Translations under genes and position numbers: made by a program
Assembly: GCF_003334765.1 (NCBI RefSeq)
Contig: NZ_QOWT01000113.1
DNA: 532 nt
Direction: 5' to 3' (one strand)
Origin: Escherichia coli
Lineage (GTDB): Bacteria > Pseudomonadota > Gammaproteobacteria > Enterobacterales > Enterobacteriaceae
Shown here: positions 1 through 532 of the stretch, piece after piece
Layout: every line of letters starts with the position of its first letter
How positions within the stretch are numbered: position 1 is the stretch's first letter
Notes under the pieces: generated by a model
Databases searched by the model: none
What the model was told of the DNA's origin: nothing
The model's input: only the letters and a program-made list of their open reading frames with translations

Positions 1-497
1 GCCATATCCCATTCATGGCAGGGCTCCGTTTTGTCGGCCTGCGTCACCACAAACAGCACCTGCTGATGTCCCCGGTGCAGGATGTGTCGCCAGAAATACT
101 CATCCACAGACAGGGCACGGTCATCGGCTTTAATCAGCCACAGTACCAGGTCAAGTTCAGGCAGAATGTCACGGTACAGGGCTTCATACTCTGCATCCCT
201 GTCCCGGCTCTCGCCCACCCCGGGCAGGTCAGTGATAACCATGCTGTGACCATGGCCACTCAGACGGAAGCGCTGCACTTCCCGGGTGCCGGCGTGAACA
301 TCACTGACCGGGGTGACCTCCCCCTGAAACAGTGCATTACAGAGTGAGGATTTACCGGCCCCGCTTTTACCCATAATGCCAATCACGGGTTCGTGACTGG
401 TGAGTTTGCGCAGATGTTCCAGGATGTGACGGGAAAGTGAGTAAGGCAGGGAGGAGAGCGGTTTTTCAATTGCCTCAATGGCATCAGACGGATTCAT
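1..497 (-). CDS. yfjP: P-loop small GTPase of the YfjP/YkfA/YeeP cryptic-prophage family (MMR_HSR1-like GTP-binding domain); N-terminal 165 codons, 3' end beyond the window edge at position 1
   Basis: Manual minus-strand translation from ATG (497..495) is open to the window edge: MNPSDAIEAIEKPLSSLPYSLSRHILEHLRKLTSHEPVIGIMGKSGAGKSSLCNALFQGEVTPVSDVHAGTREVQRFRLSGHGHSMVITDLPGVGESRDRDAEYEALYRDILPELDLVLWLIKADDRALSVDEYFWRHILHRGHQQVLFVVTQADKTEPCHEWDM. GTPase motifs are present in canonical order and spacing: G1 P-loop GKSGAGKS (aa 43-50, nt 348..371), G2 Thr71 in GTRE (nt 285..287), G3 hydrophobic stretch plus DLPG (aa 90-93, nt 219..230), G4-like TQAD (aa 152-155, nt 33..44). The symbol is a family-level call from memory; ykfA or yeeP are equally possible. 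Confidence 0.9.
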   Translation of the reverse strand, partial: MNPSDAIEAIEKPLSSLPYSLSRHILEHLRKLTSHEPVIGIMGKSGAGKSSLCNALFQGEVTPVSDVHAGTREVQRFRLSGHGHSMVITDLPGVGESRDRDAEYEALYRDILPELDLVLWLIKADDRALSVDEYFWRHILHRGHQQVLFVVTQADKTEPCHEWDM

Positions 498-505
498 ACA
501 TGTAT

Positions 506-511
506 TCCCGG
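506..511 (-). promoter_or_regulatory. Weak putative ribosome-binding site (minus-strand CCGGGA, GGGA core) about 8 nt upstream of the ATG at 497
   Basis: Minus-strand sequence upstream of the start reads caccgggaatacatgt-ATG; the GGGA core is a partial match to the Shine-Dalgarno consensus at acceptable spacing. Weak signal. Confidence 0.3.
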
Positions 512-513
512 TG

Positions 514-532
514 AAAAAAGACAAAACCCCGC
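514..532 (-). terminator. Possible 3' tail of a Rho-independent terminator belonging to an upstream minus-strand gene (truncated by the window edge)
   Basis: Minus-strand sequence at the window edge reads gcgggg-ttttgtctttttt: a GC-rich segment followed by a T-rich tract, as expected for the descending stem arm plus U-tract. The complementary stem arm would lie beyond position 532, so the hairpin cannot be confirmed. Confidence 0.25.

Follow-up and report, generated by a model that had tools for sequence, protein, structure and literature searches.

The window (the whole stretch of 532 nucleotides analysed here) holds the 5′ part of a GTPase gene on its minus strand, together with a short upstream segment that continues past the window edge. 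It matches E. coli chromosomes at 100%, including NZ_CP086556.1 (strain ESY002, referred to as L001), and positions outside the window are given on L001, where the L001 position equals 5533 minus the window position. The features at the locus are the following:

1 to 497, minus strand: YeeP/YkfA/YfjP-family GTPase gene, 5′ part (first 165 codons), from the translation; it runs off the window at position 1
348 to 371, minus strand: P-loop or G1 motif GKSGAGKS, residues 43-50, from the translation
495 to 497, minus strand: start codon ATG (the M of MNPSD), from the PGAP start, homologous N-termini and upstream stops in relatives
506 to 509, minus strand: weak Shine-Dalgarno-like GGGA, 8 nt before the ATG, read from the sequence
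514 to 526, minus strand: U/T-tract TTTTGTCTTTTTT of the predicted leader terminator, from a terminator scan and fold
527 to 532, minus strand: GCGGGG, outer 3′ stem arm, from extension and fold
L001 4981 to 5000, outside the window: the partner CCCCGC, the inner stem CACC/GGTG and the loop, from extension and fold
L001 4943 to 4969, outside the window: sigma-70-like motif TTCCAA-15-TATTAT, from motif conservation
L001 6025 to 6261, outside the window: IsrC / IS102 RNA (Rfam RF00124, 74.6 bits)

The coding sequence in the window is that of the PGAP CDS WP_001069714.1 (“GTPase family protein”, 290 aa; 100% match). It contains G1 (GxxxxGKS) as GKSGAGKS and G3 (DxxG) as DLPGVG, is similar to its relatives over the full length, and has G46, G48, K49, and S50 at positions that are invariant in the GTPase family alignment (A3). 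A homologue search with this GTPase returned 3543 proteins (precomputed Pfam PF01926); it shares 98-99% identity with E. coli proteins named “GTPase family protein” and 51% with K-12 YkfA and YfjP, and its similarities to Era/Der/MnmE-type NCBIfam models are all below cut-off. One 322 aa homologue (P0001) has an internal tandem duplication of the P-loop segment IGIMGKSGAGKSSLCNALFQGEVTPVSDVHAG, which may be an assembly artefact or real. A 110-aa ORF at window positions 15-347 on the plus strand, antisense to the GTPase coding region, is probably spurious.

Of 5426 complete genomes, 4535 contain relatives of the window, the median copy number being two; for CP4-type islands, the share of complete E. 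coli genomes is about 77-84% (4166 and 4535 of 5426), often with several copies each. In L001 the GTPase gene is the first of a 12-gene co-oriented array of about 11.5 kb: it is followed by the IsrC/IS102 RNA, an Ag43 gene, and genes for YeeR-like, IrmA, DUF905, and DUF932 proteins, and the array continues with antirestriction, YeeS, DUF987, YeeU, and CbtA genes. The IsrC/IS102 RNA sits between the GTPase gene and the pseudogenised Ag43 gene, the same layout as in K-12 CP4-44, and the locus is an island module of the CP4-44/CP4-57/CP4-6 type. The K-12 paralogues of the GTPase gene are yeeP (CP4-44), yfjP (CP4-57), and ykfA (CP4-6). Unlike the window copy, yeeP is a 5′-truncated pseudogene without the leader, and it was dropped as a comparator. 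A scan for tRNA and tmRNA genes returned none.

The first-pass annotation, made from the window alone, had pointed out that the minus-strand frame stays open from ATG 497 to the window edge. This is correct: the minus strand reads 532-GCGGGGTTTTGTCTTTTTTCACCGGGAATACATGTATGAATCCG from the edge, and the codons upstream of the ATG (GGG GTT TTG TCT TTT TTC ACC GGG AAT ACA TGT, or G V L S F F T G N T C) contain no stop. In the full genome the frame of ATG 497 is open for 57 codons, reaching L001 4865. The choice of ATG 497 as the start, made on the basis of a family N-terminus MNPSD, agrees with the PGAP start and with the homologues: proteins of 290-291 aa from more than 15 genera start at the same position and align to MNPSD, and their N-termini, M[NQK]K[SPT][DE]GLQAIEKPLASLP..., line up with MNPSDAIEAIEKPLSSLP of the window GTPase. 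Relatives at about 60% identity and 100% query coverage come from Yersinia, Serratia, Citrobacter, Klebsiella, Enterobacter, Erwinia, Pectobacterium, Salmonella, and Hafnia. The weak GGGA that had been noted about 8 nt upstream is present at 509-506, and the homologues have GAGG, GGAG, or GAGA at the equivalent place.

We gathered related loci from other genera and scanned 170 nt upstream of each start; the 60-locus set used below consists of enterobacterial loci, from about 20 genera, that share the motif CAGAYAKATATYAT. In 47 of these 60 loci there is an in-frame stop between the upstream motif and the ATG, often 12 nt before the ATG. ATG 497 is almost certainly the genuine GTPase start, and the 57-codon open frame is best read as a local accident of the window's lineage, because of the homologue starts and the stops in these 47 loci. 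An N-terminally extended protein, in which the upstream frame would be coding and would begin at TTG 524 or farther upstream, has the 57 stop-free codons on its side and is used by a single automated ENA gene call (P0002, 355 aa). We give it virtually no chance: homologues start at the position equivalent to MNPSD, the relatives have their stops between motif and ATG, the stretch contains the hairpin and T-tract described below (TTG 524 lies inside the T-tract), the indels among paralogue leaders are not multiples of three, and PGAP does not accept the extension. For annotation, this settles the start codon and makes the unbounded upstream frame a non-coding leader. An out-of-frame ORF of five codons (ATG TAT GAA TCC GTC TGA, MYESV*; window 484-501, minus strand) begins 4 nt before the GTPase ATG and runs across it; it is probably meaningless.

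The G+C segment and T-run next to the window edge had been suspected to be the tail of a terminator, with a complementary arm to be sought beyond position 532. Extension past the edge found this arm: L001 4981-5006 reads CCCCGCCACC-TTTCC-GGTG(C)GCGGGG, followed by TTTTGTCTTTTTT, and the gcgggg segment with its T-run is the 3′ half of a real hairpin. The hairpin has a 10-bp G+C-rich stem with one bulge and a 5-nt loop, with the T-tract directly on its 3′ side, the combination of G+C-rich stem, short loop, and adjoining U/T-tract that characterizes intrinsic terminators. It folds at -19.5 kcal/mol (z = -2.9 relative to dinucleotide shuffles, and -3.8 for the 44-nt RNA from the predicted start), and a simple consensus terminator scan also picks it up. 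From the T-tract to ATG 497 the distance is 16 nt. The leader matches no Rfam family at a permissive E-value (the search returned the downstream IsrC/IS102 and sub-threshold terminator-like noise), and the K-12 annotation lists no feature and no ncRNA at the ykfA and yfjP leaders.

A hairpin (dG ≤ -10) followed by a T-tract lies between the motif and the ATG in 52 of the 60 loci, compared with 25 of 570 dinucleotide shuffles (4.4%). The hairpins comprise 49 different sequences, all at the same position in the leader; their median dG is -15.8, and by the medians they start 16 nt past the motif and stop 27 nt short of the ATG. A global MAFFT/RNAalifold fold of 46 leaders failed, since the hairpin classes are not positionally homologous, and was replaced by per-sequence hairpin detection with shuffles and by within-class alignments. 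In the ykfA/yfjP class (19 sequences), compensatory double changes are found at 8 of 9 stem pairs and 90.6% of cells are paired; the covariation score was reached by 0 of 500 shuffles, and slid registers fall to 38-52% paired. The stems of K-12 ykfA and yfjP are unrelated in sequence to that of the window, with a T-tract at the same place (yfjP: ACGGCAGAACC-TCGC-GGTTCTGCCGT), and their 74-nt segments fold at -27.3 and -18.3 kcal/mol. The stem energies of sense and antisense strands are equal and do not discriminate between strands, so the polarity of the hairpin rests on the T-tract: over the 49 distinct hairpins, 7.0 of 10 positions are T on the 3′ side, against 2.9 of 10 that are A on the 5′ side. 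The K-12 pseudogene ypjI retains the whole leader. Together, the conservation, the covariation, the flank polarity, and the ypjI leader indicate that the hairpin is unidirectional, selected, and tied to the 5′ end of the GTPase gene, and we are highly confident that hairpin and U-tract are a selected terminator-type structure. Distant betaproteobacterial homologues (Vogesella L076, L081, and L083; Aquitalea L089), in which the enterobacterial motif is absent, have a strong hairpin of the AGCCACC-TTCG-GGTGGCT type and a T-run that ends 24-56 nt before the inferred start (the start codon inferred for L081 is uncertain).

The motif shared by the 60 loci is always upstream of the hairpin; it lies outside the window, about 70-90 nt upstream of the ATG, and is the sole conserved promoter-like element. 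In the window's island it consists of a -35-like TTCCAA (L001 4943-4948) and a -10 hexamer (L001 4964-4969), with a predicted transcription start at G4976; its counterpart at ykfA and yfjP is TTGAAA-15-TATCAT. Across an alignment of 46 sequences, the hexamer T-A-T-Y-A-T shows little or no variation other than at the position that corresponds to -9, and the base 7 nt after it is always G; a sigma-70 -10 element with its start site would be expected to look like this. The window's copy has its weak points: the -35 hexamer TTCCAA matches at 3 of 6 positions, and the 15-nt spacer is suboptimal. Conservation extends to the spacer block TTTCAGACAGA, to a degree that promoter activity by itself would not call for. 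RpoD holoenzyme bound the perR-ykfA and rnlB-yfjP spacers in vitro by genomic SELEX, and TTGAAA-15-TATCAT was assigned to both in silico, the binding being at spacer resolution (Shimada et al., 2014; PMC3946193). This promoter assignment, which is not a mapped start site, corroborates the conserved motif. Six loci (Morganella, Providencia, and one Yersinia rohdei copy) have no hairpin at all, with 28-42 nt from the motif to the ATG. That hairpin-less loci keep the motif is expected if the motif is the GTPase promoter and the hairpin a separate module inserted in the leader.

The motif holds a near-palindrome, AGATA-T-TATCT. We searched the islands for further copies of the motif that could serve as a common operator; the one other good copy precedes ypjI (L006 22455-22817, in K-12 CP4-57 upstream of yfjX/lfgA). 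This pseudogene, which reads MSNSEGW*SF*QTLSGLPQW..., is itself a GTPase stump, the remaining 5′ end of a second GTPase gene of the ykfA type, with a complete motif-hairpin-T-tract leader in front of it.

Where, then, is the GTPase gene transcribed from? The first-pass annotation had supposed that, if the T-run ends a terminator, the gene has its own promoter in a very short intergenic space. This does not hold: the space from T-tract to ATG is 16 nt, a sequence scan found no promoter-like site in it, and the conserved promoter-like element lies upstream of the hairpin. Because 16 nt are too short for a promoter and none was detected there, the GTPase mRNA must start upstream of the hairpin and read through it; because the conserved promoter-like element lies upstream as well, the terminator would be inside the GTPase gene's own leader. 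The reading that we favour, with moderate confidence, is that the hairpin is a leader attenuator downstream of a functional promoter. Transcription would begin at the conserved sigma-70-type promoter, at the invariant G 7 nt after the -10 hexamer; the 10-bp G+C-rich hairpin and the U-tract would begin 5 nt past this predicted start, to be followed by 16 nt with the weak Shine-Dalgarno sequence and the ATG, for a predicted leader of 60 nt. The promoter's own transcripts, as well as any read-in from the upstream gene family described below (gene X) or from foreign upstream DNA, would have to pass the terminator; most would presumably terminate at the U-tract and a fraction would pass, giving expression of the GTPase and the downstream genes. 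As an attenuator or insulator, the element would hold expression of the island operon down except where termination leaks or is overridden. Transcription of the GTPase gene thus probably has to pass a “brake” in its own leader and does not start at a promoter wedged behind the terminator.

The part of the earlier proposal that assigned the terminator to a preceding gene fared in a mixed way. In the window's genome, the upstream gene in the annotation (DUF2971), at a distance of 353 bp, is divergent; the hairpin therefore has no co-oriented gene before it that it could terminate. An intergenic-region search showed that homology among E. coli islands typically starts at L001 ~4931-4942 (just before the -35-like hexamer) or at ~4857-4876, which is 40-125 nt upstream of the hairpin, regardless of the DNA farther upstream; motif, hairpin, and GTPase gene are inherited as a block while the upstream neighbours vary. 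The idea retains some ground in other genomes: 24 of the 60 loci have a co-oriented ORF whose end is no more than 130 nt from the ATG and immediately precedes the motif, and 21 of these 24 ORFs belong to one family, gene X (~285-400 aa as mechanically called; for example L004 1860-3011 and L013 1936-2892, with 19 further loci), which may be the ancestral neighbour. In E. coli strain 2D, for instance, gene X ends 84 nt upstream of the ATG, and the leader and hairpin are identical to those of the window. Gene X had no assignment in Pfam, NCBIfam, or PADLOC; a weak C-terminal RHH/copy-control-like match in the Serratia orthologue alone hints that its product may bind DNA. The ancestral order is likely to have been X, motif, hairpin, GTPase, with X lost from the window's island.

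In 21 loci the motif comes straight after the stop codon of the co-oriented gene X, so the main role of the hairpin could be to terminate that gene. In its full form this alternative makes the hairpin the terminator of the preceding co-oriented gene (ancestrally X) and the motif no promoter, with the GTPase expressed by residual read-through or from an unrecognised start. It would account for the 24 loci with a close co-oriented ORF and for strain 2D, with its gene X and identical hairpin, and the hairpin lies about as far from the stop codon as a gene's own terminator usually does. Nevertheless, the hairpin is intact where no co-oriented gene precedes it, here and in thousands of E. coli copies. 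Three loci that have no hairpin (L055, L059, and L062) are still ordered gene X, motif, GTPase, which indicates that the motif is independent of termination; and the motif has the conservation pattern of a sigma-70 -10 element, while the K-12 spacers bind the holoenzyme. The conserved order is stop-motif-terminator-SD-ATG, not stop-terminator-promoter. On balance, we consider the alternative unlikely; a terminator role for gene X and a leader role are, however, not mutually exclusive. A second hairpin, GTCCGCT(A)CTG-GCA-CAG-AGCGGAC, is found still farther beyond the window edge, at L001 4876-4899, some 45 nt before the -35-like hexamer. Neither of its flanks carries a T-tract; it shows compensatory changes in strain MNCRE44 (L003) and has a relative, CCGCTTTTGGCACAGAACGG, upstream of ypjI.

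Folds of the predicted leader contained no alternative antiterminator structure and no leader peptide, and 5 nt precede the hairpin. An outer helix between the discriminator region and the SD region was considered and rejected: its RNAduplex z had a median of -1.5, with 34% below -2, and on the class alignment 71% of cells were paired with a compensatory change at only 1 of 11 pairs. A classical RNA switch is unlikely, given that there is no competing fold and no room for one and that the outer helix has no covariation support, so any regulation of the leader attenuator would be by protein.

Small RNAs derived from leaders are known, such as GraL of greA, and the locus might likewise make an sRNA of about 40-50 nt, composed of terminator hairpin and U-tail (the usual Hfq-binding module), with the GTPase gene merely downstream. 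Measured from the predicted start to the U-tract, the RNA would be 44 nt long for the window's leader and 45-55 nt for leaders of the ykfA/yfjP types, and the latter have a fairly conserved 5′ single strand of about 15 nt (GAACATACC..ATTAA). We regard such a product as very unlikely: the 5 nt before the hairpin in the window's class are too short for a seed, the leader has no Rfam match and no ncRNA is annotated at the K-12 loci, and the element is always tied to a GTPase start, even in the ypjI stump. The accessible part of the Term-seq supplements of Adams et al. (2021) lists no 3′ end in the yfjP or ykfA leaders, which speaks against the leader attenuator as well as against an sRNA, and is uninformative if expression is low.

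The inverted repeat could also act as DNA, as a recombination or boundary site or as a protein-binding palindrome. The island homology breakpoints do cluster within 50 nt upstream, the stem energies do not differ between sense and antisense, and the near-palindrome lies within the motif. This reading is extremely improbable in view of the stem, whose sequence, unlike a protein site, changes freely while pairing is kept, and of the strongly asymmetric T-tract, which is always 3′ on the gene strand; moreover, the sense strand has 25 G.U wobbles against 8 A.C mismatches, a count that carries a detection bias.

Compared with known systems, the leader attenuator that we favour is an ordinary kind of element. 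It resembles the greA leader with GraL in having a G+C-rich stem-loop and U-tract between a sigma-70 promoter (putative here) and the first ORF, in lacking a leader peptide, and in the short terminated RNAs and read-through fraction that would be expected. Unlike the greA leader, the window's hairpin is only about 5 nt from the predicted 5′ end and is known from sequence alone, and the element is carried on a mobile island module and conserved in about 20 genera, with stems that are replaceable. It shares with the trp and pyrBI leaders, riboswitches, and T-boxes a leader terminator that would gate downstream expression, but differs from them in that no antiterminator helix or leader peptide is predicted, there is no room for either, and Rfam has no match. 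Its closest likeness is to K-12 ykfA and yfjP, of the same family and with the same leader order (motif, hairpin, T-tract, SD, which is AGAGGAG in K-12, and ATG), although in the window copy the stem sequence differs and both the -35 and the SD are weaker. In the literature on these leaders the SELEX promoter assignment was the sole match, and this widespread, island-borne instance of a leader terminator is apparently undescribed.

CP4-type islands carry Ag43, antirestriction, RadC-like, and CbtA/CbeA toxin-antitoxin genes, the control of which is poorly understood. A predicted promoter and a conserved terminator within a few nt of each other, heading the array in about 20 genera, provide a concrete control point, and the leader terminator may explain the near silence of the island genes in laboratory culture.

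Promoter-proximal antitermination by a dedicated factor is established for lambda Q at pR′-tR′ and for P. aeruginosa AlpA at PalpB-tB (PMC7969949; PMC9371919), where the factor's binding element falls within the -35/-10 spacer and a terminator immediately precedes the first ORF (PMC7969949). The window's locus is similar in its conserved promoter-spacer block and its intrinsic terminator directly before the first gene of a long operon that is part of a mobile or prophage-like element, and AlpA-family (PF05930) genes occur in the window's island as well as in related ones. It differs in that the published AlpA-binding motif (ABE), GGGACG-N5-GGTA, is absent from the TTTCAGACAGA block, and in that no conserved -10-like pause element was seen in the initially transcribed region. 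An analogous switch, in which an island-encoded factor would bind the TTTCAGACAGATAT block, load on RNA polymerase, and override the leader terminator, is suggested by this analogy and is, in our estimate, a long shot; candidate factors are the AlpA-family HTH protein, gene X with its possible RHH tail, and a WYL regulator. If true, such a switch would turn on the array of GTPase, Ag43, antirestriction, RadC, and toxin-antitoxin genes in the CP4-type islands of Enterobacterales, and antitermination of the Q/AlpA type would extend to very common enterobacterial islands.

AlpA of E. coli itself is known for activating intA. On L095, an AlpA-family HTH regulator of 68 aa is encoded at 30909-31115 on the minus strand (PF05930, E 2e-8), about 8 kb upstream of the GTPase gene. 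The protein shares 82% identity with the copy from the Serratia island, and its gene adjoins inovirus-type Gp2-like and Hha/YmoA-family genes in a decayed part of the island.
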